IMG/VR virus record: IMGVR_UViG_3300027759_000051 | Reading direction: 5' to 3' (one strand) | Origin: a virus | DNA: 64,000 nucleotides | Shown here: piece after piece, positions 10,197-53,070 of the stretch | Numbering within the stretch: the stretch's first letter is position 1 | How the letters are laid out: each line of letters starts with the position of its first letter | Notes under the pieces: generated by a model | The model's database searches: none | Told to the model about the DNA's origin: nothing | The model's input: only the letters and a program-made list of their open reading frames with translations | Translations under genes and position numbers: made by a program

Positions 10197-10223
10197 ATCA
10201 TTCCCTTCTTTCGTTAACTATAG

Positions 10224-14868: not shown

Positions 14869-14884
14869 GATTATATTGTAGTTC

Positions 14885-21922: not shown

Positions 21923-21926
21923 CAAT

Positions 21927-33356: not shown

Positions 33357-33603
33357 TTCTGTACTCTCCGAGAAGCTCTTCTATGTCTACGTTTGGATAT
33401 AGTTTTTGTGCTTCCTCTTCATCTATTTCGTCAATTTCTGTTGACCCAGTTATTAGTGACTTCATGACTTCACTTGTTTCAATTAGTTCGCCTTCGCGTA
33501 ATTCAAACTCGTCTAACGTTTTTTTTGCATCATCAAATATTAAGACCATAAGTTTTACATTATCTGTATTGTTTTTTACTTTTGTGAAAAATCTTAACCT
33601 CAT
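33349..33603 (-). CDS. small acidic protein, candidate immunity/antitoxin
   Basis: ATGA overlap with the stop of the protein ending in a RelA/SpoT-like domain. Confidence 0.55.
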   Translation of the reverse strand: MRLRFFTKVKNNTDNVKLMVLIFDDAKKTLDEFELREGELIETSEVMKSLITGSTEIDEIDEEEAQKLYPNVDIEELLGEYRNG

Positions 33604-36600
33604 GAAGAAACTCCCATTGTTTCCAATTCCCTGATTAGTGACTTTATGTCAACTTCTTGGAATGGCTGAAACTTTGTTTCTCCTATGCTGAGTAACTCGT
33701 CAGGCGGGTATGGAACGCCGATCTTGTTAGCCATTTGAACCATCTCATCATAAAGCTGACGGCGTTGTGCATTGTCTTTTGACTCCCTGTACGTCTCGTA
33801 CAGTTTGTGTATATCTTCTTTGTCTTCAACAGACTGTGGCGTGTGGAACTGTAATTCAAATTTTGTTCCGTCTGGGCCAATTGCTGCGATGTTTATGCCC
33901 TGATATGGGTCATCGCCCTTCCAGTAGTTTTTTATTCTTAGTTTGTATCCAGCGGCTTGTAGTTCTTCTACCATGTTCTTCACGCCGGAAACATATTCTT
34001 CTGGATCAAAAGCAGTTGTGTACCTGATTACGTCGCTCATTGACTCGGCGGCTTTTTGAGCATCGCCGCCATGTTCTGTATCTTTTTCATCAAGGATCTT
34101 GCGGACCAAAGATTTGAGTGCTTTTATTCTAAAGTCAAGACCACGCATTTCTCCTTCATGCTTATTAGCGAGGTCAATCAGTGTCTTTGTTATCTCTTTT
34201 TCTGCTTCTACTAGTTTTTCTCTTTGTGCAGTAGCTGCTTCAATAACGTCTCTTGGGGCGCCGGGTTTTGGTTCGGGGTTATCTGGCTCGATCATGTCGT
34301 AGCCACCGTGCTTGTACTGCACTTTTTTAATTGTTTTACCAGAAGATAGACCTGCCGACCTTCCGGGGGACGAGCCTCCCCTGCCGAATCCGTATTCGTC
34401 TTCAAGTTTCGCTAGGCTTTCTCTATCTTCTCTGCTCCATCCAGAAGTATCTGGGGCAACCGACATGAGGAAATCTCTTATTCCTGCGTCTTCTCCTGCG
34501 TACTCTTGTTCTCTGTCTGCGTCTTGCGAACGGTTGGCTTTTCCTCGCCCTAACTGACTAACGGTATTTCTGTACCAACTTGAGTAATCTGTTGATGCCT
34601 TCTGCTTGGGGTTGAAGTTTTTGGGCTGCTCCGCAGTTCCTTTTCCGAACCATCTTGACCTTGCGTCGTTATACCCAACTTCTCGTGCGCGAAGGAAATC
34701 TGGCGAGAACCTTCCGCCGACCTCATCTCGCTGACGTTCAATTGTGGTGAAACTCATATCCATTCCAGCTTCCCAGTCTGATATGAACTTTTCGTGTGCT
34801 TCGCGTTTTGCGTTCTCTTCTGGGTCTGGGAATTGACGCTCAAGATCAGGATCCCTGTTTGAGTGACGAGTTGTCTTGCGTCCAGAAGATAGACCTGCTG
34901 ACCTTCCAGAAGATAGACCTGCTGGTTGTCTGTCTTGAGTTCCCCACGGAGCGCTTGTCTCTCTCAAGTCCAAAACACGTGCTTGCATATTCTTGTTACC
35001 AAGAGCTCTATGCATAGCAACTCTGTTGTGTCCATCAATTACGAATATCTTGCCAGTTTCATCTATCAGCAGGTATGGGTCGTAACCCTCTCTAAACGGC
35101 TCTTCACCCGAAACAACCTTGTCTATGGAGGATCCCTTGAGGTGTGACTCCGTAGGGAGAATGTCTAGATCAAGATCAACTTTTGAAACAGGAATATCGT
35201 CCCACCCATCCCATGTTTTTGCTGACTCAACGTTGGCATCTTCGGTGTATTCGAGTTTCCAGTCCATCCCGTACTCGCTCATGGGGCGATCCCTGTTTGC
35301 CTTCAAGCCAGGAGACCTATCTGGTGTTGCTCCTTTTTTAATATCCCTAACTACTGGAGGACTAGAATTACCATCGCCTTTTCCTGATTTTGAAGCCATA
35401 CCAAAATCTGTGGCCCACTTGTTTGCTTCCCTGAGTATCTCGGATATTGGAGAGTCAACCACGATAACGTTTAGTTCAAGGTCGCCAAGTTTTCCATCGC
35501 TTAGGTCTCTTCCTACCTGAGCAGCCCATCTGTGGTGTCCGTCAATAACGTAGCCGTCTCTACTTACAAATATTGCTTCACCTTCTGGATCAAATTTTTC
35601 GTTTGTGATCATTCCCACTACTTTTGATCCAACTAACTCATTTTGCGTTGCTTTAAGTTCTGAGGCTTTTACCTTTTTCCTCTTTACGCCTATTCCTATT
35701 TTAGATAGGTGCTCTTCAAATGCTTTTGTTCCGTCAACTCCGCCCCCTTTGTCCTTTGGCAACTTGTCAGCATCAGAACCCGGAACTGGAGTACCACTGA
35801 ACTGTGGCATATTTATTCTTTCTATGCCCTTTGAATCAGAGCAGAACAAGTTTGTTCCCGGCACAGAGACTCTACATAGGTCATAGTTTGGAGCCTTGTC
35901 TCCCTTGCTCAAGGCATCCTGAACTATCTCGTTTAGTTTGTCAATCAATGTTGATACTTGGTCAACTGAATCAAGTTCAACTAATTTTCCTTCTTTTATC
36001 ATCTTCAGGGCATCATCAATTGATTCTGGCTTGAATATTTCTTCGCCACGGGAAGATACTGATTTCTTTGCCCCAGAAGAAAGACCTCTTCTTTTTTCCC
36101 TTCTTGTTCTGACTGCTGCTCTGGCGGCGTTCAGCTTTCCAAATGCCCAGTCCTCTGCGCTTGTGGCATCTATGCCTTTCATTAGCAAGGCAATCATTAG
36201 CAGGTCTTTTGTTCCTTGTAGGTTGTCTGGATCTGCGTTGTTCCACTCATTCCAAGCACTTACCGCAGTTCCGACTAAGCCTGAACTTAACCCAGAACTT
36301 CTTCTAGCAGAATTTTTTGCTTTTTGTTTTTCTATAACAGACGTTATTGCTTCAAAAAGTTCAAAAGAATCAAAATCTGCTTCGTTTTCTGGTATCGCTA
36401 CATCAAGTATGTCTTCAAGCTTTTTCTTTGTATCTAATTCAATTGTTCCATCTTCAACAAGGTAGTCAAGTTCGTCCTTAGCTAGTTCCCGCATAGCCTT
36501 TTTGCCCATTGATGTTGCGAATTTTTTAGACTCATCAGTAGTTAAAGTGTCAAGTGCGTCTCTTAATTGAGCGGCTAGTACATCTCTTCTTCTCTGTTCA

Positions 36601-39600
36601 TTGACAAATGATCTATCGCCGTAGCGAAGTGGTCTGCCGCTTGGCCCAACCATTACATCATCTAACTCTTCGCCAGAAAGTCTGACCCTCGGTCTCTTGT
36701 CTACTGAATTATGGAACTCAAGAGCTTGTTTGATTATTATTTCAGACAGTTCTTCATTTGACTTTGTTTTTAGCAATGTGCGGACTGATTCAGGTACGTC
36801 TGATTCGGATATTTCAATATCGTCGTCGCTTCCGCCGAACTGGAGAACGTCACGTAGCCTCTCAAACGTCTCGGAAGTGCGTGACTGTAGTTCCACTTTT
36901 CTATCTACCGGAGAAAGCTCCTCACCATATACGTCATCAAGTGGGTCTGGATCTGCTTTTGGTGCTCTTCTCTGTGGACTACTTGAAGCTTTTACTACAT
37001 CTATGTCGTCATTTATCTTTTTTGTTTTTGCTTCAATATCTTTTTGTTTTGTAAGCGGGGTAACGACAGTTGAAGACTTTCCTTCTTTTCTTCTCCTCGC
37101 AGCATGGGAGTTTACTGATTTCTCCAACTTCCTTCTTGTCCCCTTGGCATGCTGGTTTGGGTTTGGTCCTTCTTCGCCTATATTTGAGATCATTGAATCG
37201 AGTGACTGCATTGGGTCGTTTTGATGAACTATCTCAGCGATTAGAATCTCATTGCCATCGTCGTCTATTTTTGTGCCTACAATTTTAAGTTTTCCGGGAG
37301 GGAGCAGAAGTTTTTGCTCGTAGTCGTCTGGCTTATCTGAAGATAAATCGCTCCAGTGGGGGAAGTGACCCTTCTGTCCTGCTTGAACCCGAACCATTAC
37401 TCTTGTTGGCTTTTTCCCACCATCAGTAGGGTTGCCTTCCAAGGAATCAGCATTAAATGGTCTTTTCTTACCAAGAACTGAACCCGTAAGTATTCCATCC
37501 ACTATTACCAAATCAGCATCTTTTTTTGCACCTAGTTGATTCAAGTCAAGATCAAGCGTTGTCTCAATCTCAATTGCATCGGTAAGTTCCGACCTGTCAA
37601 TAAGTTCCAGAGATGGTATTAATATGTTGTCAACTTGACCAACCAAAGACCCAGTAAGTCTTGATGTATCGTCAACATCAGCGCCACTGCCGTCAGAGTA
37701 CATTTTGATGGCGCGACGATTTCTTTTGTTTATTGCCTTCGCAGCGCCAACTTGTTTTTCTGGATCTAAAATGTTTCCAATATCAACTTGCTCTGGATCT
37801 GCGAGTTGTGTTATTGCGTCACGCTCTTGTGGTGTTGCTGTTTTTAGAAGTTTTGCTCTTTCGTTTAATGCGTGCTCTTCTGCGTCTTTTTTACTGTTAA
37901 AAGTTTTAGGTTTTGGCTTTTGTTTTTTATTTTTTCCAGAACTAGTTAATATTGCATCAACTTTTTTATCAATAAACTTATTTAGAGAACTTACTGACGC
38001 ATTCTCGTCAGATTCGCTACGCCGATCCCTTATCGCTTGACGATACTTTCTTTTTTCTGCTTGAAGTTTTGATTTTAGATCTTCACTGATGCCATCCTGC
38101 ATGAGATCAACTTCTATCTCAGCAAGCCTGTTTAGTAGTTGTTCTTCTGTATCGTTATTGACATTATTGTTTATTTCTTCAATTCTTCTTTTTTCTGCAA
38201 TTTCAGATATTTCTTTATCTGATAGCAAGCCATTTTGTTCTCTCGCAGTTTTTAAAATGTCAGAAAAGCTATCCTTAAACTTTGAGTTTCCAGCTTTTTC
38301 GTATTCTTTTGCTATGTCACTGAAGTACGAAGAATCGTCAAGATTTCCATCTATTTTTGCTTTTTCTGCACTCGCTTCATGAGCGATTATCGCTTTAATT
38401 ATTTCATCTTCAGAAAGATCTGATGCTAGAGTTTTTACATCTTTTAGATTTTGTGATCTTCTGTCATTTCTTCTTTTTCTCACATCATCAATTGATGATT
38501 GATAATATATTTTATTTTTGGAAACTTTTGATAGCGGACTTGATCCAGCAGTATTGAAAACATCTTGCTCATATAGGTCATATTCTGCCCTATCTTCAAA
38601 AAATCTTCCATCAGAAACGTCATCCATCCACTCAAGCGCCCCATCAACGTCGTCGCCCCATATGAGCCCAGACATTCTTAATGCAAACAATTCAGCAGAT
38701 ACTTCCGCTGCTCGTATCCCTGGGTTTTCTACTGTTTGTGGATACGAGCCAGCAAGAAACTTAACTGAATCAGAACGACTCATAACGTTATTTATGGACT
38801 CAAGAAGATCGGGATCACTAAATGCATCAAGAACCGCTTCTGGTGTTATTTCTTCTACTTTTGTTATTCTTTTTTTATTTCCTTGGTAATCAAAGTATTC
38901 ATAGTATCCATTTGAATCAATTTCTGATTTTATTTTTCTTCCTACTGCGGTTATTTGCAGAGTATGTCCAAGTTCGTGGTACATTATGTGCCTTGCAAAA
39001 CCTTCGTGACCCAAGGCGAGGGCGGCAGTCCTGCGGGCTTCTAGTTGTGAGCTAACTAAGAAGTCGTTAGCGGCTTGTGCATTTTCTGAGTCTGAACCAC
39101 CTATTGCGTCAATCCTCATTCTTGAATACTCATCAAGGCTTGGCAACATTGCTTCTTGGTTGTCCATTATTGTTTCAAGGTCAATACCTATTGTTGAGTG
39201 CTCAAAACCAGAGCCGAAAGCATTTGCCCTTGCCTCATCAGGACCTTCTGGGTTCTTACTCCAGCTTAGTTCCCTTAAGTTTTTTCCTATATGGTCAGGC
39301 ATCTGGACATACGTATCAAGCAATGCGTCGAGCATTGATCTTTCTGTTGCGTACCATCTGTCAACATCTGCTTCAATTAACTGCTGTCTTTGATTGTCAG
39401 ACATTTTTGCCCAAGCTTCTGGGTTTTTGTCTCTTAATCTGTTTGATATGACTGATACAACTTCGCTGTAAGATTTTCTATCAGTAAGTTCTAATTCAAG
39501 CAATCCTCTTTTATTGAGTTCTTCAATTGCTTCTATCCTGTCGGCGTTAACTGCTTCTTTTTCTGGAGATGACTCTATTCCAAGTGAATCCTGAAGTCTA

Positions 39601-40616
39601 GAGACTCGCCGCTTTGATGCTTCAAGACCAGTTCTTGCCCTTTTTGCTCCACTGACAAACCAGCGAAACTCAGACGGTGTTTCCTCTACGGAAACATTCT
39701 CTAGATCTAGTTCTGGAGAATATGGGTCATTTCTATTCTTTGCCCTTGTCTGCTTTACTCCCCAGTGATTTTTCCACCACATATTGTTAAAGACGCGACC
39801 AGAAGAAAGTCCAGCCGTTTGCGGTCTTCCTCTTATTGCATCTCTTTCGCTGAGTTCAATACGTGACATTTCATCTGCCACGCCCGTCACTCTTCGTGCA
39901 AAATCTATTAGTTTCCCTGGAGAAAATCCAAAGCAGTTTGAACCACTTGCATCAGTAAATTGGTTTGCGGCAGGACTTCCTGGAGGGCACCTAAACTTGT
40001 TTAAGTCGTCAACCCATATACCTAGTTTTGCTGCTGCTCTTGCGCCAAGGCTCCCACCGGCAACGCTCCTACCAATATTCATTCCTGGTAATTTTTTAAA
40101 CTCAATAGATTTCTCCATTGGTTCACCAGACCAGAGCTTATAAGGATTTACCCGCTCTTCCGAGCCTTCAATAACTCCACCAGTCTTCGGACTGATCTTG
40201 TATTTACGTACACGGATTTCTGGTTTTTTTCTTTTTTCTTCTGCTTCTGGTTTTGCTTTTTCAACCCAGCCAAAGTTAACATCTTTTCTTGATTCGTTAA
40301 TTTTTGATTGTAGGTTTGGAAGCCACAGGAACGTTTTGTTTTCTCCGCCCTTTTCTCCCGGCTTGAATCTCACACCGTTTATATCAACTACACCAGGAAT
40401 CTCTCCGGTGTTGGTTCTTTTCTTTCCGTCTGAGTCTTTTGCACCAGGGAGTGCTTTGACTGCAAGATCTGCATTAAGGCGTGCAGATTTAATTGAATTT
40501 ATTACTGAGTTCTTAAAAGCTATGGCAGTCTCGTCAAAGTCTCTCATTTCTGAGAGAGGTGAGAAAAGACTAGGAGATAGATAGACTCTATTTTTACGGT
40601 GTCTCTTACCCGTCAT
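33600..40616 (-). CDS. 2338-aa GLSSG-linker polyvalent protein: zincin, ART-like, two ParB-like, shared cassette A, RelA/SpoT-like
   Basis: HELGH; EQKLLLPPG; IDGHHRW and IDGHNR; RIKALKSLVRK/DVIRYT/YQGIN/FELQFHT; six GLSSG. Confidence 0.85.
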   Translation of the reverse strand: MTGKRHRKNRVYLSPSLFSPLSEMRDFDETAIAFKNSVINSIKSARLNADLAVKALPGAKDSDGKKRTNTGEIPGVVDINGVRFKPGEKGGENKTFLWLPNLQSKINESRKDVNFGWVEKAKPEAEEKRKKPEIRVRKYKISPKTGGVIEGSEERVNPYKLWSGEPMEKSIEFKKLPGMNIGRSVAGGSLGARAAAKLGIWVDDLNKFRCPPGSPAANQFTDASGSNCFGFSPGKLIDFARRVTGVADEMSRIELSERDAIRGRPQTAGLSSGRVFNNMWWKNHWGVKQTRAKNRNDPYSPELDLENVSVEETPSEFRWFVSGAKRARTGLEASKRRVSRLQDSLGIESSPEKEAVNADRIEAIEELNKRGLLELELTDRKSYSEVVSVISNRLRDKNPEAWAKMSDNQRQQLIEADVDRWYATERSMLDALLDTYVQMPDHIGKNLRELSWSKNPEGPDEARANAFGSGFEHSTIGIDLETIMDNQEAMLPSLDEYSRMRIDAIGGSDSENAQAANDFLVSSQLEARRTAALALGHEGFARHIMYHELGHTLQITAVGRKIKSEIDSNGYYEYFDYQGNKKRITKVEEITPEAVLDAFSDPDLLESINNVMSRSDSVKFLAGSYPQTVENPGIRAAEVSAELFALRMSGLIWGDDVDGALEWMDDVSDGRFFEDRAEYDLYEQDVFNTAGSSPLSKVSKNKIYYQSSIDDVRKRRNDRRSQNLKDVKTLASDLSEDEIIKAIIAHEASAEKAKIDGNLDDSSYFSDIAKEYEKAGNSKFKDSFSDILKTAREQNGLLSDKEISEIAEKRRIEEINNNVNNDTEEQLLNRLAEIEVDLMQDGISEDLKSKLQAEKRKYRQAIRDRRSESDENASVSSLNKFIDKKVDAILTSSGKNKKQKPKPKTFNSKKDAEEHALNERAKLLKTATPQERDAITQLADPEQVDIGNILDPEKQVGAAKAINKRNRRAIKMYSDGSGADVDDTSRLTGSLVGQVDNILIPSLELIDRSELTDAIEIETTLDLDLNQLGAKKDADLVIVDGILTGSVLGKKRPFNADSLEGNPTDGGKKPTRVMVRVQAGQKGHFPHWSDLSSDKPDDYEQKLLLPPGKLKIVGTKIDDDGNEILIAEIVHQNDPMQSLDSMISNIGEEGPNPNQHAKGTRRKLEKSVNSHAARRRKEGKSSTVVTPLTKQKDIEAKTKKINDDIDVVKASSSPQRRAPKADPDPLDDVYGEELSPVDRKVELQSRTSETFERLRDVLQFGGSDDDIEISESDVPESVRTLLKTKSNEELSEIIIKQALEFHNSVDKRPRVRLSGEELDDVMVGPSGRPLRYGDRSFVNEQRRRDVLAAQLRDALDTLTTDESKKFATSMGKKAMRELAKDELDYLVEDGTIELDTKKKLEDILDVAIPENEADFDSFELFEAITSVIEKQKAKNSARRSSGLSSGLVGTAVSAWNEWNNADPDNLQGTKDLLMIALLMKGIDATSAEDWAFGKLNAARAAVRTRREKRRGLSSGAKKSVSSRGEEIFKPESIDDALKMIKEGKLVELDSVDQVSTLIDKLNEIVQDALSKGDKAPNYDLCRVSVPGTNLFCSDSKGIERINMPQFSGTPVPGSDADKLPKDKGGGVDGTKAFEEHLSKIGIGVKRKKVKASELKATQNELVGSKVVGMITNEKFDPEGEAIFVSRDGYVIDGHHRWAAQVGRDLSDGKLGDLELNVIVVDSPISEILREANKWATDFGMASKSGKGDGNSSPPVVRDIKKGATPDRSPGLKANRDRPMSEYGMDWKLEYTEDANVESAKTWDGWDDIPVSKVDLDLDILPTESHLKGSSIDKVVSGEEPFREGYDPYLLIDETGKIFVIDGHNRVAMHRALGNKNMQARVLDLRETSAPWGTQDRQPAGLSSGRSAGLSSGRKTTRHSNRDPDLERQFPDPEENAKREAHEKFISDWEAGMDMSFTTIERQRDEVGGRFSPDFLRAREVGYNDARSRWFGKGTAEQPKNFNPKQKASTDYSSWYRNTVSQLGRGKANRSQDADREQEYAGEDAGIRDFLMSVAPDTSGWSREDRESLAKLEDEYGFGRGGSSPGRSAGLSSGKTIKKVQYKHGGYDMIEPDNPEPKPGAPRDVIEAATAQREKLVEAEKEITKTLIDLANKHEGEMRGLDFRIKALKSLVRKILDEKDTEHGGDAQKAAESMSDVIRYTTAFDPEEYVSGVKNMVEELQAAGYKLRIKNYWKGDDPYQGINIAAIGPDGTKFELQFHTPQSVEDKEDIHKLYETYRESKDNAQRRQLYDEMVQMANKIGVPYPPDELLSIGETKFQPFQEVDIKSLIRELETMGVSS

Positions 40617-40633
40617 CTGCGGGCCAGTCTTTC

Positions 40634-42196
40634 TTAGTTGGTGTCTGTGTCTGATTGGAGCAACTCAAACTCAACCAAAGATGCGATGAAACTTTCATCA
40701 ACATTCCCTGACTTCTTTGACATATCTCCACCCATAACCCAATTTGGTGGGATCAAGTTTTCTTTTCCAAGATCCTTGGCACGCTTCATGATGTGAAGTC
40801 TTGCTGCTTCTTTATCCTTGGCACGACCATAGGACTGCACCGCGTTACGCAAGTCTTCTTCTGAAGTTATTGGGTAAGATCCATCAGGAAGGGCCATTCC
40901 TTCCTTAGCAAGAGACATTCTCTTATCATCAGAGAAAGCTCTCTTCAAGGCGATCTCTGCTGCTTCAGCTTCAATCTCTTGTGCTTCCTCTGATTCGTAC
41001 TTGTCGTAGCCAAGAACTTCGCCATCAAGTGACACGAAAACATCGTATGACTTTCCATCTATTCCATCAATCTCTACAGCGTATGAGTCAACGCCTTCAA
41101 ATACGTCTGGCTCAACTGCGATTACTTGTCCCTCTATTGACTTGATTGCAATTTCAGCAGCATCAGAGAAACCAATAACAGTCATTCCACTAAGTGCTGA
41201 CTTTTGCTCAAAGACTGACTCGTCAAGTTTGTGGAAACCAACAACTTCTGCTGAAGTTCCATCAACGAAAACTTCACGTACTTGACCATCTTTTGTTTGA
41301 ACATCAACAACGAACATGTCAGCGGCAGCGGAGTATCCAGAGTCAATGACTATTCCCTTGAATTGTGATTCAACCAATCCTTCAATTTGAAGTAATCCGG
41401 GGAATCCTTTTTCTGAGATGCATCCACCTGGGCAGTCATCACATACTGCTGCGTTGCCGGGGTGTGTCTTTCTCTCAATTGCGCAAACGTATCCGTTTTT
41501 GCCAATTTCGGCAGCCTTCATACCCATTGATTCAATTCTGCGCTTACGCATGTCTTCGAGCATCATGGCTTTTTCTTCGTCCATCATCTCGTCGTCTTCT
41601 TCTTCATCTTCCATCATAGGCACGCCCATGCCCATGCCTTTTTTCTTCTTTGGCATCGTATTCATGCCGTACATCTTCTCTTCGCCGTACTCTGCTGCTT
41701 CAAGCTCTTCGTCTGACATTTCTGCCATCATGCCCATTGGCGATGGAGCATTACGCTTGCCCATGCCTTTTTTCTTAGGCATGCCGTGCATGCCCTTTTC
41801 TTCGGTCATTTCTTCGCCCATTTGCTCTGGAACATAAGGCAGTTTTCCGTACTTTTTCTTATATCCATCCCAGCCATACTGCTTGTAGTAGGACATCTTC
41901 ATCTCGTCCATGTCTTCTGGAGACTCAACTTCTTCTTCTATCTCGTCGGCTTCTTCGTCGCCTTCGCCGAGATAGATATTTACTTCGTTCTCATCTTCCG
42001 ACATCTCTTCATCTTCCATCATTTCCTTATTTTTGGAAATTGGAATCATTTTCATCTCAACTGGAGCTGCTCCACACTTTGCACATACCGCTGCGCCAGC
42101 CTTGTAGCCGCAATCGGTGGCTACTGCACCTTTTGCACATTTAAGGACATTTCCTTCTCCGTCAATGCTTAACATTGGTTTATTTTCAGTTTCCAT
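40634..42196 (-). CDS. Met/Glu-rich scaffold-like protein with PepSY-like repeats
   Basis: Low-complexity E/M/K centre; DAAEIAIKSIEGQVIAVE..YAVEI..YDVFVSLDGEVL; ALPDGSYPI domain. Confidence 0.65.
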   Translation of the reverse strand: METENKPMLSIDGEGNVLKCAKGAVATDCGYKAGAAVCAKCGAAPVEMKMIPISKNKEMMEDEEMSEDENEVNIYLGEGDEEADEIEEEVESPEDMDEMKMSYYKQYGWDGYKKKYGKLPYVPEQMGEEMTEEKGMHGMPKKKGMGKRNAPSPMGMMAEMSDEELEAAEYGEEKMYGMNTMPKKKKGMGMGVPMMEDEEEDDEMMDEEKAMMLEDMRKRRIESMGMKAAEIGKNGYVCAIERKTHPGNAAVCDDCPGGCISEKGFPGLLQIEGLVESQFKGIVIDSGYSAAADMFVVDVQTKDGQVREVFVDGTSAEVVGFHKLDESVFEQKSALSGMTVIGFSDAAEIAIKSIEGQVIAVEPDVFEGVDSYAVEIDGIDGKSYDVFVSLDGEVLGYDKYESEEAQEIEAEAAEIALKRAFSDDKRMSLAKEGMALPDGSYPITSEEDLRNAVQSYGRAKDKEAARLHIMKRAKDLGKENLIPPNWVMGGDMSKKSGNVDESFIASLVEFELLQSDTDTN

Positions 42197-42301
42197 GAAT
42201 TCTGGCTCCTAAGTGTCGTGCCGTAAAATTATACCTAAAATTTAGTCTATAAAAATAACTTATGATGAAAGAGTACCCTATTATTCGCTGAGAATAATGG
42301 A

Positions 42302-45300: not shown

Positions 45301-45613
45301 ATCTGCTCTGTGCTTCTGAAACTTCTTTTGGCGTAGAGTTAAGCCTCTTGGCTATGTCTTCTGGAGTTAGTCCTTCGTAGCCAAGTAACCACATTTCACG
45401 GTCATTTGCGCGCTCTTCTACTCTTGCTGTTGCGCCAGATGTCCTTGAGGTACTTTTGCCTGAACTTAATTCTCTGTACTCGTCGGATGACGGGCCTGGT
45501 CTTCTTTTTCCTGGGCGTGTTTGTGCGCGTAGGATATCCCTATCCGCAAATTTCTGCCTATCTTCTTCAGACCAGGGGCGACGATTTGATACCTCGCCCC
45601 TTACCCTTTTTTT
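42302..45613 (-). CDS. -1 frame extension of the protease polyprotein ending in an ArdC-like antirestriction domain (track ORF 42302-45394)
   Basis: Frame is open from 45616 with no ATG until 45394; five LSSG linkers; WSPPW, YRGIN, VKKGEKG, VFNLDQ, HEIVHWTGH, YAFEELIAE match ArdC. Confidence 0.8.
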   Translation of the reverse strand, partial: KKRVRGEVSNRRPWSEEDRQKFADRDILRAQTRPGKRRPGPSSDEYRELSSGKSTSRTSGATARVEERANDREMWLLGYEGLTPEDIAKRLNSTPKEVSEAQSRYRRKYESVPSFANEREELASMRERIAYDLLSFADGDKEQEDMAVRMLSDRYNEFGNRPGSYENRSRAGLSSGAALAERSNVEVGDMVQVGGEDWGSVERVDRRNIWIKPLEWNDGTPNTSGRLVSIPRKLEEISVFRKPNRNSSTNLVQRDGTPTNRLSRRTQLPLTVSRGLSSGARSTYVPPMNDLIKEKIRTRFIGSKIKSRPMTQNLEHSPGGEWLLDGAKIRSLFVDETGKSIPDSQIAKTLNISVKELESITAEGNGVSELDIRKITEAIFLGLTEGRVNSSVISEQELSRIPEKDRGLAGALFQSAEESQGVGSRIGILDYPDVVGTQIWGFGYSPYWIDSTEETTITSIGKTSRDSDRAKDSFRALLEDGEILRSVYPSPEPFGYTDDLSDVVIGAETVTKAPSANAGELVPQGVVLESSNFPLSKLIQALGADPDNRLDVLQKILDTGLVIDKQGFNNWAKKGVPSQYIDHLIDRGVIKSAADAFGPEVGEFDRMSQAGEAYERFKAVVEKNRVGKAYAILNFSKSEDLDGIISRWKERKAKAKAASPTSPIKISGKASRISDSKKKEMVERYNLAAKKKGLPSLTYDEIFGNPSSGLSSGAKRFSNVDGNANRKMTARVDVKYPSLPKAYSNISDIPTPARLDGAPLSSGRRDELYQTLTKSVIQQMEDSIANGTRWSPPWRMGGMTPQNGTTKARYRGINTLMLSIAQQEGGYEKPIWASFDQWKSKGGSVKKGEKGTPIIFYSRVGREVEDRNNPGELKTESRGILRESYVFNLDQVEGIDRSIYDPEDALPEDMRRTDVDDISKALNIDLNHSGDRAYFSPLQDKIVIPPFSEFSSPEGYYGTLLHEIVHWTGHSSRLDRPNMGSPKVESEYAFEELIAELGTAYLMSILDITVEPREDHAQYLAFWVQRLKDDPDGLMRAATSAQKAVDYIIENVPALKEAQDRADAIANEARQEAKERADAVKASRPAPKKRSATTRKPTTRKKK
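45574..45613 (-). promoter_or_regulatory. candidate programmed -1 ribosomal frameshift signal
   Basis: In-frame A_AAA_AAA, 5-nt spacer, then AGGGGCGA..TCGCCCCT hairpin; joins the two ORFs in the correct frame. Confidence 0.7.
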
Positions 45614-48600
45614 CTGTTACGTCCTGACGAGAGTCCACGCCCAGAATCTCTTCCAGACATTTCTCCGCTATCTTCACGCATTATCAAGTCGCTCTCAAGC
45701 CCAGCGATCCATCTCTTGAAAGAAGGGTCATTTGGGTTTGGGGACTTGCCTGTTTCACGCCTGTAGCTTGCGAACGCAGAAGCCCTCTCAGATGACGGAC
45801 GGCTCATGAATGAACTGTACATCCTGTCGGTTTCTGCCATGTCGGCATCAAGCAATGACTCACGTCTAGCGCTGTTCTCATCTGCGGCTATTGTGTCTTG
45901 CATCATCTCACGACGCCCAGATGAGAGGGAAGAACGTCGAGCGCTTCTTGGGTTACCAGAATCACTGAAGTTCATGTAGTTAGCAACCATGTCATTAACC
46001 TGTGCTGACATTTTACCATCACCAAAAAATGCAGCTTCCGATACTTCTTCTGCCAAATCGTCTCGATTGCTTCTATATTCATCAAGCTGTTGATTAAGTT
46101 CATTTACTCTTGAGTTTATTTCTTCAACCAATTTTGTGTATTCGTCTAGTTCAATGTCGCCTTCATCAAGATCCATTCTTGCTGACTCAAGTTCAAGTTT
46201 TGCTGCCTCAACTTCTCTATATGTATCCGGAATTAGTTCTCTTGCATCTTCTAAATCCTGAGACTTCCTGTCGTACCTGTCCTCAAACATTTCAACTTCA
46301 TCACGGATCTTTTGAATAAAATCATCAAGATCAGCAAGACTATCAACCGTTTCCGAACGTAATGGACCTCCATTATTTTTGTCAAAGTCGTATACGTCCA
46401 TTGCGTTTATTTGTCTTTGTACGTCTGGATTTTTTTCGTATACTGCTTTTACTATTTCTTCACGCACCTTGAGAGCATGTTCCAATTTTGCAAGTTGGTA
46501 ATTTCTTATTTCATCTCGATATGGTGCTGAGTTTTCTGCGTTTGGCATTACATATGAATACAGTTGTTCACCTGAAAATTCTTTTTCAACTTCTGGTGTC
46601 TCTGCCAAAACTTGAATAGCTGCTGTCCTGAGGGACGATTCGTTATTTGCATCAATCCTCTCGTAAGCATCGCCCATTGGCTCAAACTTCATTCCAGAAG
46701 ACATTCCTCTTGTTGCTGTTGAACTGTATACAGATCCAGCTACCGTTCCTACGTCTACGCCGTCGCTGTCACTTCTGCTGCGTCCAGAGGAGAGTCCCCT
46801 TGCGCTGCTTGGTGTTCTAGGCTTGCTAGGAACGTCAACATCTTGCAATGCTGCGTTGACTGCGTTTGTCGCTTCTGCTTCAAGTTTAAAGATTTCATTT
46901 ATATTTTCTTTTTCTGAAGCATTTAGAGCTGGGTCATTTGCTTGTAGTTTTGATGCAACTTCTTTATAGCGGTTTAATTCAAGTTCAATCTGTTTTGCCT
47001 GATTGAAAGCCAATACCCGTATAACGTTTTCGTCAGGTATCAAAGCAGCAACATCATTAAAAACTAAACCAGAAAGAATCTCTTCTGCGTCTTCATCATC
47101 TTTTGCTTGTCCGCTGTCTACGAGGACATTTACTAAATTCCAATCTTTTATTAGATCCTGCTTGGCATCTTCTACATCATAAAATGCACTTTCAGAACCA
47201 ATGTACTCGCCATCTTCATCAAAGTCTTCTGATAAATTTTCTTCAAATATTTCTCTTGCCGTAGATGCTAAATCCTCATCATCTACGTCATATATTTCCT
47301 TGAGCTTTGCGTTGACTATTTTATTATCTTCTGATCGCAGCGCTTCAAGATCTTTATCGGCAGTTTCAAACGATACTCCAGCTAAGCGTAGCTTTTGCTT
47401 GGCTAGCCTTAGTGCTTGAACATCTTTCATACGCTGAGTTGATGGGTGTTCTGCAATAAGATCACTTCTTCTAGAAAGTATATCTTTGTTGGTTTTTAAT
47501 GCAGTGTCATACTCTTGTGCCAGCTCAATTCTTTCTCTTCTTAGCCTTTGCACTTCTCTTGATGGAGATGGTATATCAGTAGCTCTTCTATCGCCGTCAA
47601 AAGTTTCAGGAGCTAACTCTGCTACTGAATCAAGAACATCATGTATCTGCAATGGCGTTGCATTAAACCTGTAAGCAAGTTCATCTACGCTTAGTCCACT
47701 ATGTGAAAAATCTTTAGCTATTGCTTCAGCAACTAATTGCTTTTTGTATTCCGTTTCGTCTTCACTCATCTGCCCAAACTGACGAATACGCTTTGGCTTT
47801 AGTTTTCCATCAAATGGCAATCCCATCCTAAAGCGCCTCGCAGCTGCAAGTCTTTGCACTCTGCCTGATATGGCAGGGCTTTTTTCTCCAGCAACAACTG
47901 GGTATTCGGCTAGGAGTTCTTGGTACGGGATTGTAACGTAGTCCCTCCAGAACATATCGTGGTCTTCTGCTGGTGTATCGGGAGTATCCCAGTTATGTGG
48001 TCGGGTTTTTGATGTTCCGTCATCTGGAGTGTCATAAACCCATTGTCCGGACTTTCCGTCCCAACGCGGCCTATGAGGTTCTCCATTGAGTTGTGCGTAA
48101 TCGCTTGGATCTCTCTTTGAAGGATCGTATTCCTCTCCGTACCTACCAGAAGACAGACCACCCCTGCCGTAAGGCCTATCAAGGTAGTCATCGTACGCAC
48201 TGGTCATTGCCTCAAGCGTGTTGCCATTAGCCATTCCTATGTACCGATTATGAATGGCATCACTTTCTTCCCAGTACCCAACTATGCTTGCTGCATCATC
48301 TGAAGAAACGCCATTTTCCTTGAGTGCGTTAATCGCGTCTCTTCTGAAGTTTGCTGAATAACCATATTTTGCTGGATTGTCTTCAAAGTCGGCTTTGGCA
48401 ATTTCTGGGTCATAATCACGCGAACCGGGTCGTTCGCTGTTTGCATTGTCTACGAAATAAATCTGCTCAATATTGGATCGTTCATTGTCGCTGAGTTCTT
48501 CCCATGAGGAGAATGGTTTACCTAGTTCTCTTCTTCCAGAAGACAATCCTCTTCTGCCTGAAGACATTCCTGCTCTGCTGTATGGGCCAGATGACGTGCT

Positions 48601-51600
48601 TTGCCTGCTTGCTCCAGGGATAAGTCCCTCTATTCTGTCAAGCCTGAATGTCCTATATTCACCGGACTCGCTATCTATGCCACCAAAGTAAAGAGCTCCA
48701 GCCTTTGACCGACGAAGAGAGTCGTAAATACCATTATCCGACTCTGCTCTGATCTCACGCATTTTGCCGTTGTACTTGAATGCAACCGCATCTGGGGAAA
48801 CAAACAAGTATCTGAAGTTTGCACCAATGTCATCGGTGCGGGCTGCTGCCTCTTCTGGGGTTATGTTTGCTGGGTCTCCTTGGCGTGGATCAATTCCTCG
48901 TCCAGAAGAGAGACCACCTTCACCTTCTAGGCCAGCCTCAAGTTCGGATGAAGTCTTTAAAAAGTTCCGCTGCTCATCTTCGGACATTGAATCTTCTATT
49001 GCTTGCCTGATGTCATAACTGTCTTCATCGTACGAGCGGTACCCAAAGTCGCCGGGGCGGTTTTTGTAGTCGGACTTATTGATGCCGTGGTTTCTTTCTA
49101 AATAATCCCAACCAGGGTCGTCGCTTAGTGAACTCGTAGTGTTGGTCAGTACTTCATATACTTCGTAACCTAGATCTTCAGTGGAAAATTCGTCTATTTC
49201 TTTCAGGCGCTCAGCCAATGGCACATCTTTGCCAAGGGAGTTGACGACAAGTTTTTCACCAGTTGGCTTTTTACCAGAAGACAGACCACCTTCTGGAATA
49301 AATATACCTCTAGTTGCGCCACTTTCATAGTCTCTTATTGACTTTTCAAACTGTTCTGGCGTCATATTTGCTCTGAGGGCGGTAAGGAAATCCTCGCCAG
49401 TCATTTCATCAATAGACTCTGATATATATGCTTCTTCAACTTCATCGCTTGATGGGCTGTAGTCACGTTCTGACCCACGTGATCCAGATGACTCAAAACC
49501 AAAATCAACACTGCCCGCATACGAGTCAAGTTCATCTTCATCCGGCATGCCACCATAAACGGCATCATAGATCTCTGCGTCACTCATCACGTCCCGTGCG
49601 GAGTTTGATGAATAGTCATACCAAGAGTTATCACCTGTAATCGTTCCGTCAGATATCAACTTCTCAATTACGTCTGCGTATTTTTTATCATTATCAGAAA
49701 GGTTTATATAAACTTCTTCTTTGCGATGATCGGGAAGTGCTGCAACCATCCTCAGTCGTTCTTTTAATTGCTCAGGAGACATTCTTCTACCAGAAGACAG
49801 ACCACCCCTGCCATACGGTCTATCAAGGTAGTCGTCGTAAGCACTGGTCATTGCCTCAAGCGTGTCGCCATTTGCATTTCTCAGGTAGCGCTTATGAATA
49901 GCGTCATTCTGTTCCCAGTTGGCAACTATGTCTCCTGCTTCATCTGAGGAGAGTCCAGTTTTCTTGAGTGCATTGACAGCGTCTCTTCTGAAGTTTGCAG
50001 AGTAACCATACTTTGATGGATTATCTTCAAAGTCTGCTTTAGCAATTTCTGGGTCGTAGTCACGTGAACCAGGACGCTCGCTGCCTGGATTATCCGCAAA
50101 ATACGTCTGCTCAATAGCGGAGCGCTCATTATTGCTGAGTTCTTCGTATGAGGAGAATGGCTTGCCTAGTTCTCTTCTACCAGAAGAGAGACCACCTCGT
50201 TCGGCATCCATTTCGGCAAGCATTTCAAATGCCTTCTCATATTCAGCGTCGTTTGTTTTGTTGTTTCTAAGCTTTTTAATTGTTGGGTGGTCTTCTTCGA
50301 GGACCCCTCTGTCAATCAGGAAATCGGCAAGTGCTTTAGGATCGTTTCCTGCTTCTTCTTCTGCGAGGTCTACCCAACTCTTTTTACCAGAAGAGAGACC
50401 ATCCCGCTGAATATCTGCGGCTAGAATTTCTTGCATTTTCTGTGCAACCAGTGAATTTGGCTCCCCATACTCATTGGTTAATCTATATCCCGGAACGCCC
50501 TCATTTGAAAGAGCTTCCCTTGCTCTTTGCATGATGGAGTCATATTCTGCATCACCAGAATTCGCCATCTCCTCAAGCCTGCGCTCGGCAGTCATCATTG
50601 CTCGATTTTTTGAGGTATTTCTTAGACTTGGGTCAACTGTCCGTTTAGGCTTTCTAGGCTTTGCGGGAATGTCTCCAGATTCATTAAAGCGAATGCCAGA
50701 AGAGAGACCGCCTCTACCGAATCCATATTCGCTTTCGAGTTTGGCTAGACTTTCTCTATCTTCCCTGGCCCAGCCAGAAGTATCTGGAGCGACGGCCATG
50801 AGGAAATCTTTCATTCCTGCGTCAATTCCTGCGTACTGCTGTTCTCTGCTTGAATCTTCCGAGCGGTTAGCTTTGCCTCGTCCTAATTGAGAAACGACGT
50901 CTCTGTACCAACTTGAATACTTCGTAGAAGCCTTCTGCTTTTCATTGAAGTCTTTTGGCTGCTTTGCTGTGCCTTTGCCAAACCAGCGTGACCTTGCGTC
51001 GTTGTAGCCAAGTTCACGACCACGAAGGAAGTCCTCTGAGAATCTGCCACCACGCTCGTCTTGCTGACGCCCAATCGTGGTGAAGCTCATGTCCATGCCA
51101 GCTTCCCATGCATCAATCAGTTTGTCATGCGCTTCTCTCTTTGCATTTTCTTCTGCATTTGGGAATTGCTTCTCAAGGTCACGATCCCTATTTGAGTGAC
51201 GGCTCAGATCTCTTTTACCAGAAGATAGAGCTCTCCTGTCTGCTGCTGGTTTCTTGCTTCCGCCTTTTTGCTTCTTGAATGCTGCTGTTGCGCGTGCTGC
51301 GTCAACGACGCCTCTTGTTCCGAAGTCATTGATGCCTGGAATTGCTGGTCTTTGGTATGGAGTTCCTTCTTGAACTAATCCGTCGTTGTCGCCGTCCCAT
51401 GCCTTTGGATTAAATCTTGCAGCCATTCCACGGCCAGCCCTAGCAGTACGTCCTGCAAGGTTTCTGCCGAGTGCTTTTACTGCGTTATTAACTGCTTCTG
51501 CAAAATCTTTATTTACGCCAGATGTGAAAACAATTCCACCATCATCAACATATGCTTCTGCTCGGTAGTAGTCAATGATTGGGTCAATTGCCTGCTTCAT

Positions 51601-53070
51601 CTCAAATGCATCTTTTTTAGTTACTGGCAAGTAATAAATTTCATTGCTTGCAGACTTTACGGAGTATTCGCCTATGCGTGTCAACTTGACTGAAGGCACA
51701 AGCGCATCACGCTTGCTCTTGACTGCATGCCTTAGGTCGCCTTTTACAAATACTTCTAGGTACTTGTCTTCAACCTCTTTGAGCCACTTGACTTCTTCTT
51801 CTTGCATTTCTTCTAAGACTTCTTGCTTCTTGATAGGGCTTACCTTCACTACGCCCTCTGGGATAACGGCGAAGCGACACTTGCCACCATCTTCCACTTT
51901 CAATGCAATTATCTTGCAAACACCATTGCCTTCATACATGACGCAGTTTGAGCATTTGACGCCAATTTTTGCGACCATGTTCTCCGCTGCAGGCTTATAT
52001 CCAGCCCAAACGCCGTTCGCATCTTCGTTGAACTTGCCGTGTCTTTTGGTTATCTTTATAAGGGCTTCAGCAAGATCTGCTTCTTCCTGAACCAACTTTG
52101 GCTTTCCTGCTGGCTTGCTTGATGAATCTTCACCAGCGTAGTCAATTTGAACAAGTGGCATCTGGTTAGGCATGCCACCTGGCAAGACCTGTGGAACAAT
52201 AACTGTCTGATTTGGATTCTGTGGAACCATTGGACGCGAAGGCATTCCCATTGGCATCATTGGTTGTGGTTGTTGTGGCATCTGGCCTGGCATTTGCATT
52301 GGCTTATTTATGCGCTGTGGAGCAGAGAACATATAGGTACCGTTGTCATTATGAAAACGACACTTGTATGACTCTTCTTCGTCTTCTTCGCCAGTGGTAA
52401 ATGTGACAGAGCCATCCTCAATGGACGAGATCTTTACTTTTGATCCAGTTTGCAAAGAAAGTTCTTCCTGCAGCTTCCTCTGAACTTCATCTTCTGGGAT
52501 GTTTGGCATTCCCTGCATCATTGGCATCATCATTGGTTTTACGCCATCTGCGTTTTTTACAGAAATTGTGCCAGTCAGCTGATTAGCACCGTGCAAAACT
52601 GGAGAAACTTCATAGAGTTCAACTTCGTACAAGATGTTTGCTTGTGATCCTTGGTCAAACTGTGCACGGAGAGTTTTGTATCCGATAGACCACTCTTGCT
52701 CTTCACCAAAAAATGCAACATTGGCGAATGCTTCTTTGCCTTTTTCTGAGTTTAAGTTGAATTGGACTTTCGCATAAAGTCCACCGATTCCGGCTGATCT
52801 CATTTTTGGTGGGAGGCGAGGATCGTTTGGCGGAACCTCATACATTTCAAGGACTTTACCTATTGGATCGTTCCAGTTATGACCCCATACAACACGTGGC
52901 TTACGGCGCAGAAGGCTCTTAGCAAATGCTCCAGTTGCGCATACGTCACCAACGGAATCCTTGTTACCTATACCAGCAACAAAACACTCAACTATTCCCT
53001 GTGCTTGGTCTAGATTTACCTGACCAGTGCTTGCTTTGTATTGAATATTTTGTGAGTATGTATAGGACAT
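45601..53070 (-). CDS. HK97-type prohead protease fused to a giant GLSSG-linker cassette array (2489 aa)
   Basis: N-terminal DSVGD, WGHNWNDPIG, WSIGY, LYEVSPVLHGAN; directly after portal; 14 [GAS][LM]SSG linkers; WYL-like YRTFRLDRI. Confidence 0.9.
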   Translation of the reverse strand: MSYTYSQNIQYKASTGQVNLDQAQGIVECFVAGIGNKDSVGDVCATGAFAKSLLRRKPRVVWGHNWNDPIGKVLEMYEVPPNDPRLPPKMRSAGIGGLYAKVQFNLNSEKGKEAFANVAFFGEEQEWSIGYKTLRAQFDQGSQANILYEVELYEVSPVLHGANQLTGTISVKNADGVKPMMMPMMQGMPNIPEDEVQRKLQEELSLQTGSKVKISSIEDGSVTFTTGEEDEEESYKCRFHNDNGTYMFSAPQRINKPMQMPGQMPQQPQPMMPMGMPSRPMVPQNPNQTVIVPQVLPGGMPNQMPLVQIDYAGEDSSSKPAGKPKLVQEEADLAEALIKITKRHGKFNEDANGVWAGYKPAAENMVAKIGVKCSNCVMYEGNGVCKIIALKVEDGGKCRFAVIPEGVVKVSPIKKQEVLEEMQEEEVKWLKEVEDKYLEVFVKGDLRHAVKSKRDALVPSVKLTRIGEYSVKSASNEIYYLPVTKKDAFEMKQAIDPIIDYYRAEAYVDDGGIVFTSGVNKDFAEAVNNAVKALGRNLAGRTARAGRGMAARFNPKAWDGDNDGLVQEGTPYQRPAIPGINDFGTRGVVDAARATAAFKKQKGGSKKPAADRRALSSGKRDLSRHSNRDRDLEKQFPNAEENAKREAHDKLIDAWEAGMDMSFTTIGRQQDERGGRFSEDFLRGRELGYNDARSRWFGKGTAKQPKDFNEKQKASTKYSSWYRDVVSQLGRGKANRSEDSSREQQYAGIDAGMKDFLMAVAPDTSGWAREDRESLAKLESEYGFGRGGLSSGIRFNESGDIPAKPRKPKRTVDPSLRNTSKNRAMMTAERRLEEMANSGDAEYDSIMQRAREALSNEGVPGYRLTNEYGEPNSLVAQKMQEILAADIQRDGLSSGKKSWVDLAEEEAGNDPKALADFLIDRGVLEEDHPTIKKLRNNKTNDAEYEKAFEMLAEMDAERGGLSSGRRELGKPFSSYEELSNNERSAIEQTYFADNPGSERPGSRDYDPEIAKADFEDNPSKYGYSANFRRDAVNALKKTGLSSDEAGDIVANWEQNDAIHKRYLRNANGDTLEAMTSAYDDYLDRPYGRGGLSSGRRMSPEQLKERLRMVAALPDHRKEEVYINLSDNDKKYADVIEKLISDGTITGDNSWYDYSSNSARDVMSDAEIYDAVYGGMPDEDELDSYAGSVDFGFESSGSRGSERDYSPSSDEVEEAYISESIDEMTGEDFLTALRANMTPEQFEKSIRDYESGATRGIFIPEGGLSSGKKPTGEKLVVNSLGKDVPLAERLKEIDEFSTEDLGYEVYEVLTNTTSSLSDDPGWDYLERNHGINKSDYKNRPGDFGYRSYDEDSYDIRQAIEDSMSEDEQRNFLKTSSELEAGLEGEGGLSSGRGIDPRQGDPANITPEEAAARTDDIGANFRYLFVSPDAVAFKYNGKMREIRAESDNGIYDSLRRSKAGALYFGGIDSESGEYRTFRLDRIEGLIPGASRQSTSSGPYSRAGMSSGRRGLSSGRRELGKPFSSWEELSDNERSNIEQIYFVDNANSERPGSRDYDPEIAKADFEDNPAKYGYSANFRRDAINALKENGVSSDDAASIVGYWEESDAIHNRYIGMANGNTLEAMTSAYDDYLDRPYGRGGLSSGRYGEEYDPSKRDPSDYAQLNGEPHRPRWDGKSGQWVYDTPDDGTSKTRPHNWDTPDTPAEDHDMFWRDYVTIPYQELLAEYPVVAGEKSPAISGRVQRLAAARRFRMGLPFDGKLKPKRIRQFGQMSEDETEYKKQLVAEAIAKDFSHSGLSVDELAYRFNATPLQIHDVLDSVAELAPETFDGDRRATDIPSPSREVQRLRRERIELAQEYDTALKTNKDILSRRSDLIAEHPSTQRMKDVQALRLAKQKLRLAGVSFETADKDLEALRSEDNKIVNAKLKEIYDVDDEDLASTAREIFEENLSEDFDEDGEYIGSESAFYDVEDAKQDLIKDWNLVNVLVDSGQAKDDEDAEEILSGLVFNDVAALIPDENVIRVLAFNQAKQIELELNRYKEVASKLQANDPALNASEKENINEIFKLEAEATNAVNAALQDVDVPSKPRTPSSARGLSSGRSRSDSDGVDVGTVAGSVYSSTATRGMSSGMKFEPMGDAYERIDANNESSLRTAAIQVLAETPEVEKEFSGEQLYSYVMPNAENSAPYRDEIRNYQLAKLEHALKVREEIVKAVYEKNPDVQRQINAMDVYDFDKNNGGPLRSETVDSLADLDDFIQKIRDEVEMFEDRYDRKSQDLEDARELIPDTYREVEAAKLELESARMDLDEGDIELDEYTKLVEEINSRVNELNQQLDEYRSNRDDLAEEVSEAAFFGDGKMSAQVNDMVANYMNFSDSGNPRSARRSSLSSGRREMMQDTIAADENSARRESLLDADMAETDRMYSSFMSRPSSERASAFASYRRETGKSPNPNDPSFKRWIAGLESDLIMREDSGEMSGRDSGRGLSSGRNRKKG

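Follow-up and report, generated by a model that had tools for sequence, protein, structure and literature searches.

In the 64,000-nucleotide (nt) viral stretch deposited as IMG/VR record IMGVR_UViG_3300027759_000051 (the whole of which is referred to here as the window), three giant proteins are punctuated by a recurring five-residue peptide, GLSSG, that we call the tag. The evidence supports the tag as a joint between protein modules that is conserved at the level of the peptide, and the best reading of the sequences is that it serves as a recognition or cleavage site. Within the window, the products that bear tags are the giants A, B and C and an extension of A in the −1 reading frame, and no others. 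Positions of tags are given as their first bases, and lengths are in amino acids (aa).

45601..53070, minus strand: gene A, a fusion of an S78 prohead protease to a cargo polyprotein, 2489 aa, 14 tags (open reading frame (ORF) and translation).
51231, 50709, 50400, 50193, 49803, 49287, 48915, 48570, 48549, 48159, 46797, 46707, 45930 and 45636, minus strand: tags in A.
42302..45616, minus strand: −1-frame continuation of A, 1104 codons, 5 tags (translation).
45472, 45100, 44791, 43489 and 43339, minus strand: tags in the extension.
33600..40616, minus strand: gene B, a 2338-aa giant with 6 tags, arranged as leader, tag, zincin core and modular array (translation).
39812, 36293, 36086, 34919, 34895 and 34352, minus strand: tags in B.
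11293..14907, minus strand: gene C, a 1204-aa giant outside the head operon, 4 tags (translation).
14661, 13575, 12630 and 12498, minus strand: tags in C.

A six-frame scan combined with a count for each gene recovered 21 exact copies of GLSSG (10 in A, 3 in the extension, 6 in B and 2 in C) and 29 tags when the variants ALSSG, SLSSG, GMSSG, ELSSG, PLSSG and GLSSA are included (14, 5, 6 and 4, respectively), reproducing exactly the totals and the split given in a preliminary description of the window. The expectation from composition over the 7135 residues of the giants and extension is 0.02 for GLSSG and 0.3 for LSSG. The scan also bears out the earlier statements that the tag is confined to the three giant products and is usually followed by a basic residue: among window proteins it was not found in the portal, capsid protein, terminase, primase/helicase or ribonucleotide reductase, and Arg or Lys follows 21 of the 29 tags. 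The remaining xLSSG strings, in any frame, lie outside the listed ORFs or on the strand opposing the genes. The form of the tag in the window is [R/G/S/A]-G-L-S-S-G-[R/K], and two pairs of tags are only 7–8 residues apart (1501/1508 in A and 1900/1908 in B).

Tags coincide with the borders of modules, as is seen where a module occurs twice.

50710..51216, minus strand: module X, A aa 619-787, with a second copy in B (34353-34880); each copy spans tag to tag.

The copies of module X (A 614-792 and B 1908-2085) share 79% identity, with both ends 0–4 residues from tags, and a second module is duplicated tag-to-tag within A. When the giants are compared with 80 related loci, similarity drops stepwise at tags: 19 of 40 distinct homology-block starts fall within 12 aa of a tag, versus 4.1 ± 2.0 at random. 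In >20 relatives, the ArdC-N/MPTase module described below has its start 2 residues beyond a tag, at differing positions in the chain. None of the domains matched in Pfam or the PDB contains a tag. The placement of tags between recognizable domains, proposed earlier, holds for ArdC-N, MPTase, the DEDDh exonuclease and the alarmone synthetase, whereas the ParB-like (ParBc_2), WYL and HTH matches are only weak. Most modules have no match in Pfam, and a protein atlas search with module X returned no usable match. The string G-L-S-S-D at A aa 1040-1044 lies inside a duplicated module, Y, the second copy of which reads G-V-S-S-D.

The residues that flank tags are enriched in disorder-promoting types (0.73 versus 0.64, about 5 s.d.) and depleted in hydrophobic types. 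Structure models cover the tags at 614 and 788 in A, plus a low-confidence stretch directly after the tag at residue 269 of B. In the AlphaFold model of A 1-800 (26-row alignment; mean predicted local distance difference test (pLDDT) score of 51.6), tags 614 and 788 are in coil with pLDDT <50, and the helical module X between them has pLDDT 60-85. The earlier question of whether linkers match predicted domain boundaries is answered in the affirmative for these two of the 29 tags, both in coil beside a folded module.

The tag is not restricted to this phage. More than 595 IMG/VR stretches encode the same S78 protease domain, and we kept 80 of these loci for analysis. LSSG is repeated in the protease-fused giant of 64 of the 80, at up to 16 per ORF, an enrichment for which a search of related genomes had been suggested earlier; the family logo is [R/K/G/S]-L-S-S-G-[R/K/A], and loci that seem to lack the tag use another form. 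In general terms, the forms of sister lineages are [R/K]-[L/F]-S-S-G and G-L-x-S-[S/T]-[T/S]. Two nearly complete relatives define such dialects. In G004 (148 kb, with terminal repeats), the form is R-[F/L]-S-S-G, with 15 in the protease fusion, 9 in the B-type giant and 2 in a 1706-aa protein; in G001 (136 kb), it is G-L-[A/R/S..]-S-[S/T]-[T/S], with 4, 5, 5, 2, 6 and 2 sites across six proteins. Homologous joints hold their position while the form of the tag changes between lineages, and each genome uses one dialect in all of its tagged proteins, including the tape measure. The tape measures (the 1706-aa protein of G004 and a protein of 1649 aa) were assigned by synteny with the sheath, tube and chaperone genes of Gordonia phages, and their N-terminal tag occupies the same alignment column in 7 related genomes, as [K/R][L/F]SSG or, in G001, GLASSS. 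For the phage of the window itself, the tape measure is not within the 64 kb.

Apart from the tagged products, the head-operon DUF3721 protein (27828-28871, minus strand) is the only real protein of the window with a relaxed tag-like string, G-I-T-S-G-K at aa ~104-110; in G001, its 879-aa homologue carries two full dialect tags.

The use of one dialect per genome at conserved positions is better explained by a site that is read by a co-evolving factor than by a passive linker. We nevertheless considered the tag as an uncleaved element between modules, either a hinge or a docking or threading motif for a shared partner (portal, tail channel or chaperone) that aids the loading or ejection of unfolded chains. 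All tag carriers, cargo giants and tape measure alike, are expected to exit through the tail; the flanks are disordered; near-cognate strings are not depleted; and some of the polyvalent proteins, giant chains that mix ArdC-N, MPTase, RelA/SpoT, ParB-like and nuclease domains, are noted to travel without being cleaved, N4 vRNAP, ArdC and TraC1 being examples (Iyer, Burroughs, Anand, de Souza and Aravind 2017, PMC5512222). However, a passive linker needs neither five fixed residues nor a genome-wide change of dialect, adjacent tags 7–8 residues apart make little sense as hinges, and proteases are embedded in the same chains; we judge an uncleaved element to be unlikely. The dialects could also track host lineage if the tag were read after ejection by a protease of the host or by an enzyme that modifies the two serines post-translationally. 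The phage lineages that differ in dialect may infect different actinobacteria, and there is a precedent in staphylococcal phage 80alpha, the capsid and scaffold of which are cleaved by the host Prp protease. Given that the phage encodes several suitable proteases within the same proteins, a host reader of this kind seems a long shot.

All six Ser codons, including AGY, and all six Leu codons are represented in the tags, indicating that selection acts on the peptide. The same conclusion had been drawn earlier from synonymous variation, and needs qualification: TCT makes up 62–72% of Ser codons in the tags of the window versus 23% in the rest of the same genes, and ~50% versus 24% in the relatives (L002-L081). 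Strong over-use of TCT-TCT in the tag, in chains whose modules are clearly shuffled at tags, raises the idea that 15 conserved nt act in DNA as micro-homology for module shuffling, with the peptide as a by-product. This we find barely credible, given that six Leu and six Ser codons are used and AGY cannot pair with TCN, that 15 nt are too short for homologous exchange and that the dialects keep the peptide logic. Equal conservation of the peptide where the nucleotides have fully diverged, which also speaks against micro-homology, is largely seen.

The largest array is attached to a protease.

52564..53001, minus strand: Peptidase_S78 (HK97-type prohead protease) domain, A aa 24-169 (Pfam PF04586).

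That A starts with this domain (profile search, E = 8.4 × 10−11; 42.7 bits versus a cutoff of 21) confirms the earlier description of a tag array fused directly to the maturation protease. The domain is 39–43% identical to annotated capsid maturation proteases of Gordonia phages. Across 26 sequences that span three dialects, 114 of 176 positions are invariant; H64 (VVWGHNW) and S128 (EWSIGY), which we take to be the catalytic pair by analogy with HK97 gp4, are invariant in the 26 sequences. Confidence in the AF2 model of the domain is modest (pLDDT 60-75), and T4 gp21 and the herpes simplex virus 2 (HSV-2) protease appear only as weak Foldseek rows (E = 0.2–0.3); a Foldseek search of the PDB with A 1-800 gave nothing significant.

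The −1-frame extension continues the array of A and ends in a domain pair.

42497..43315, minus strand: ArdC-N plus MPTase-PolyVal zincin module (ArdC-N 42953-43315; MPTase 42497-42871; Pfam).
45574..45613, minus strand: candidate −1 frameshift cassette, comprising an A7 run, the stop of A and a GC-rich hairpin.

ArdC-N (PF08401) and MPTase-PolyVal (PF18818) match with E = 1.1 × 10−29 and 2 × 10−37, respectively. The first 74 codons of the extension precede its first ATG (45394), and codons 1–53, upstream of any ATG, are 59–72% identical to an internal tag-bounded mini-module of uninterrupted relatives; A and its extension therefore are, or were until recently, one product. At the junction, the C terminus of A reads G-L-S-S-G-R-N-R-K-K-G-stop and the −1 frame is open from 45616. 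The A7 run (45613-45607, A_AAA_AAA) is followed by the stop TAA (45603-45601) and an 8-bp GC-rich hairpin (45601-45574), with a spacer of 5 nt between run and hairpin; the folding energy is −23.2 kcal/mol (z = −3.0), a value equalled by 1 of 200 shuffles. An X_XXY_YYZ slippery heptamer in the zero frame and a downstream hairpin are thus both present. Conservation was not seen among the relatives: seven carry the same mini-module in a single uninterrupted frame, and the exact junction locus did not turn up a second time when IMG/VR and metagenome contigs were scanned for its exact pattern. Because relatives read this mini-module in one frame, the junction could be a lineage-specific programmed shift or a homopolymer error. 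What had been called a frameshift extension is a real reading frame with a slippery site and a hairpin, in a family that otherwise reads straight through. We give a programmed −1 shift roughly even odds, regard a homopolymer error as somewhat less probable, and consider a recent mutation unlikely. Programmed −1 frameshifts of the dnaX type and of the G/GT type in phage tail chaperones yield two products in a fixed ratio. The junction resembles both in its A_AAA_AAA/G slippery run, 5-nt spacer and stable hairpin, but, unlike them, is not conserved in the nearest relatives.

Gene B encodes a second candidate protease, and its array ends in an alarmone synthetase.

38601..39569, minus strand: zincin domain of B, aa ~350-672, with H547-E548-x-x-H551, E638 and E642.
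33699..34229, minus strand: RelA/SpoT-type small alarmone synthetase module at the C terminus of B (PDB 8vx3).
12814-13350, minus strand: DEDDh exonuclease in C (Pfam RNase_T, E = 1.3 × 10−12).

H547, E548, H551, E638 and E642 are invariant across 30 aligned, divergent B-type giants. The AF2 model of the B core (pLDDT 78.8) aligns with the catalytic domain of anthrax lethal factor (1yqy_A; VIA-align Z = 9.7, 193 aligned residues, root-mean-square deviation of 4.5), its only structural match with Z ≥8; the next are PPEP-3 (Z = 6.5) and PPEP-2 (Z = 6.0). The core has no match in Pfam and no Foldseek match in the PDB. Its relatives number 44 among 1.84 billion representatives and range in length from 726 to 4121 aa; 43 of the 44 have HExxH, in 41 of them at residue ~480-640, and their tags are mostly beyond residue ~1220. 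Every tagged chain of the window has an HExxH: that of MPTase in the extension, HELGH in B and the zincin-like HEWGH in C. The alarmone synthetase module matches PDB 8vx3 ('SaSAS') with E = 2.2 × 10−17 over 177 aa, and Pfam RelA_SpoT with E = 0.0046, which is below the cutoff of that family.

The leader of B (aa 209-230) has a R-C-P-x-G...F-T-D...C string in common with ORF 29451-31487, a 678-aa head-operon protein (aa 134-155). The similarity is weak (E = 0.013), and the string is also kept in the B-type giants of relatives.

At the tag, a zincin would cut before Leu or Phe, and an assemblin-clan protease would cut after the serines. The positions that are fixed across dialects (hydrophobic at position 2 and Ser at position 4) fit both. 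If the tag is cleaved, the chances are about even that a zincin reads it and cuts ahead of Leu/Phe, this being either the lethal-factor/PPEP-like core of B or the MPTase embedded in the extension; the S78 protease, which would cut behind the second Ser in a hydrophobic-x-small pattern, is a weaker candidate, and a host or other enzyme a weaker one again. The S78 protease is no more likely to be the reader than a zincin because the capsid protein has no co-varying tag, the tape measure is not a prohead substrate and an invariant zincin is present in every B-type giant.

The S78 protease as sole reader, cutting all tags inside the prohead in the manner of T4 gp21 or phiKZ gp175, deserves separate consideration, since the largest array is part of the same polypeptide. 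Across dialects, residue 2 stays hydrophobic and residue 4 stays Ser, and position 3 is free in G001. The assemblin clan has a P3–P1 pattern of hydrophobic-x-small/acidic (herpesvirus (V/L)-x-A↓S; T4 (L/I)-x-E↓), which these fixed positions fit. The differences in S78 between lineages of different dialect are concentrated at residues 134-148, beside the strand that carries Ser128; this is weak evidence because dialect and clade are confounded. Against a sole S78 reader, the capsid protein, an obligatory substrate if matured as in HK97, has no dialect-matching tag in its N-terminal region in five aligned lineages, and the capsid QLSSR string of the window's lineage is deleted in G001 and G003; tape measures, assembled outside proheads, have conserved tags; and the 114 invariant positions of the domain are shared by all three dialects. 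We therefore find it unlikely that this protease acts alone. Of the original proposal that the maturation protease reads the tag, the physical fusion stands, and the rest is weakened by the lack of a co-varying tag in the capsid protein, the tagged tape measure and the conserved zincin of B. A complex prediction that combined the S78 domain with the zincin core of B, Zn and a tag peptide of 36 aa, run without controls, scored 0.00 and counts neither way. A capsid string, E-[I/T]-[K/R]-[S/T]-I-G, was considered as an HK97-like maturation site and dropped, as alignment with HK97 places the equivalent N terminus near residue 142.

Our proposal is that an actinophage with a genome of roughly 120-170 kb makes the accessory proteins that its virion delivers in the form of a small number of giant polyvalent chains. 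One of these, A with its −1 extension, is tethered to the S78 prohead protease, which would carry the chain into the procapsid; the chains of B and C open with a leader and then a first tag. An endopeptidase encoded by the phage would next cut at the tags, freeing modules that include ArdC-N/MPTase, the small alarmone synthetase, the DEDDh exonuclease, ParB-like and WYL-like modules and many of unknown function. We assign a probability of about 0.6 to this model as a whole, in which tag-punctuated giants are virion-delivered cargo cut at tags by a phage endopeptidase; that the tag is a cleavage site at all is, on the sequences, probable. A bolder version is conceivable but doubtful: a large clade of uncultured actinophages would follow a true polyprotein strategy with its own 'cleavage code', in which a dedicated phage endopeptidase, most likely the lethal-factor-like zincin of B, reads the lineage-drifted tag, dozens of joints in the capsid cargo, the other giants and the tape measure have changed to compensate, the protease fusion is only a loading handle and the −1 shift sets the dose of ArdC/MPTase.

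The arrangement of a leader and then a first tag is found in A, B, C and the tape measure, and is reminiscent of the internal proteins of T4, whose capsid-targeting sequences are cleaved off. A 540-580 and C 40-81 have a leader in common (50% identity over 42 aa; E = 3 × 10−10), with a D-x-D-x-D-G loop directly ahead of the first tag in both. Given that position, the loop may have a role in docking or targeting. In the form D-x-D-[G/N/D]-D-G-x-[V/I]-x-[D/E], it occurs at A aa 559-575 (~51346-51396), C aa 59-75 and aa 142-158 of ORF 27828-28871, and the same loop stands at the head of giants in G001; it looks like an EF-hand or dockerin-type calcium loop.

Several points weigh against the proposed model. 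Depletion of near-cognate strings (LSS without G, or xSSG) in the giants was sought and, with small counts, not found; nothing therefore indicates that stray sites are selected against. The two- to three-fold enrichment of TCT at the Ser codons of tags does not follow from the cleavage model. Some zincin-bearing B-type giants have few or no recognizable tags, and the zincin may therefore have another job. C is encoded among replication genes; the proposed loading of B and C is drawn from gene position and leaders. For an uncultured phage that is known here from its sequence alone, we infer that the tags are cut, that the chains are loaded into the capsid and injected, when this happens and which enzyme reads the tag.

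The genes surrounding the giants mark the window as a head and replication region of a phage.

53166..55253, minus strand: portal protein, without a tag (Pfam Phage_portal, E = 1.5 × 10−48).
40634..42196, minus strand: P0004, an acidic, Met/Glu-rich scaffold-like protein of 520 aa, without tags (translation).
26339..27676, minus strand: HK97-fold major capsid protein (Pfam Phage_capsid, E = 1.3 × 10−40; HK97 structures match at ~5 × 10−50).
17558-17908, minus strand: WhiB-family transcription factor gene, adjoining the primase/helicase gene (Pfam, E = 1.2 × 10−11).
9344-9418, 10223-10297, 21850-21923 and 23278-23351: four tRNA genes, Met-CAT, Ile-TAT, Arg-CCT and Arg-TCT (three of them confirmed by Rfam).

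A, its extension and B sit between the portal and capsid genes, in the head operon, with five smaller ORFs between B and the capsid gene; the terminase gene is divergent, on the plus strand. The position of P0004 between the protease fusion and the B-type giant is conserved in relatives. PHROGs gave no match for P0004, A 170-613, ORF 29451-31487 or the G004 tape measure. In Gordonia phage ChisanaKitsune, the gp30 capsid maturation protease consists of S78, an acidic linker and a C-terminal piece, and its last ~70 residues are 59–62% identical to the C termini of the P0004 homologues of G004 and G001. It therefore seems that an ancestral protease–scaffold gene was split and cargo was appended to the protease. 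The capsid, portal, terminase and tail proteins are 36–49% identical to those of Gordonia and Brevibacterium myophages; this similarity of structural proteins and the WhiB gene point to an actinobacterial host. Among GenBank phages, none is close to the window and none has a match to the B core or to the cargo portion of A, and ChisanaKitsune, the cultured relative, has neither tag nor cargo fusion. Elsewhere in the window, a stretch of ~0.8 kb at 6148-6918 consists of purine-rich tandem repeats that are degenerate (units of GAT, GAG and GTA; periods 3–33); 6567-7702 has no ORF of ≥60 aa, and the bin 6001-8000 has a GC skew of +0.34, the extreme of the window.

Processing of polyvalent proteins after their delivery was predicted in 2017 without a defined site, and the tag of this family is an explicit candidate, unambiguous in its statistics and conserved across the phylogeny. 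Our literature search found no paper linking LSSG to phages, and no fusions of capsid proteases to polyvalent proteins beyond those of Iyer et al. The two candidate enzymes predict different scissile bonds, so that an old hypothesis becomes a simple reporter assay for which the dialects are natural specificity controls. If the tag is cut, hundreds of giant phage proteins from metagenomes could be divided from tag to tag, without annotation, into modules that are candidates for anti-host functions, and most such modules here match no known family. The N-terminal fusion to a capsid protease suggests a general handle for cargo loading. If the zincin code is true, tailed phages would have a second proteolytic code, independent of head maturation, and it would give a handle on the unpacking of polyvalent proteins.

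Among known systems, T4 packages anti-host proteins into its head and injects them, and its internal proteins IPI-III and Alt have a capsid-targeting sequence that is cut by the prohead protease gp21 (S77) at (L/I)-x-E. In both T4 and phiKZ, the cargo motif also matures the capsid protein. The combination of a leader and a short motif is common to T4 and the tagged giants; T4, however, has separate small genes with one cut each, whereas the chains here are polyproteins with up to 19 joints, and the cargo motif does not recur as a capsid maturation motif in the capsid N termini of five lineages. As proposed here, phiKZ and SPN3US (gp175-type protease, PMC5694885) process many head-internal proteins at a short consensus, but their motif is (S/A/G)-x-E, the genes are separate, there is no protease fusion, and the phage group and host are different. 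The Dar proteins of phage P1 (DarA, DarB and DdrB; cited in PMC5512222) are head-packaged antirestriction proteins, some of them processed and DdrB with an MPTase; unlike the tagged giants, they are encoded by separate genes and have no repeated joint motif. The model of the B core has its best structural matches in the catalytic fold of the MEROPS M34 zincins (lethal factor and PPEPs; PDB 1yqy, 9g0j and 6fpc), with which it shares HExxH and a downstream Glu. Lethal factor and the PPEPs are sequence-specific endopeptidases that act on extended peptides; the likeness of the B core to them is one of fold only, as it has no sequence-level match, a longer spacing between HExxH and Glu, and a setting within a phage giant of >1000 aa.

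The likeness to polyvalent proteins noted in the preliminary description is upheld by the matches to ArdC-N (1 × 10−29), MPTase-PolyVal (2 × 10−37), RNase_T (1 × 10−12) and the alarmone synthetase (2 × 10−17). Polyvalent proteins adjoin virion genes and are predicted to be co-delivered with DNA and processed by embedded peptidases, with no cleavage motif given; assemblin-like peptidases are rare among them and 'always at the C termini' (PMC5512222). The chains described here likewise combine unrelated conflict and effector domains, and A, its extension and B lie beside virion genes. The zincin of the B core differs from the MPTase family of the polyvalent proteins of Iyer et al., and, unlike those proteins, this family has an N-terminal S78 protease, an explicit joint tag with lineage dialects, and the same tag on its tape measure.

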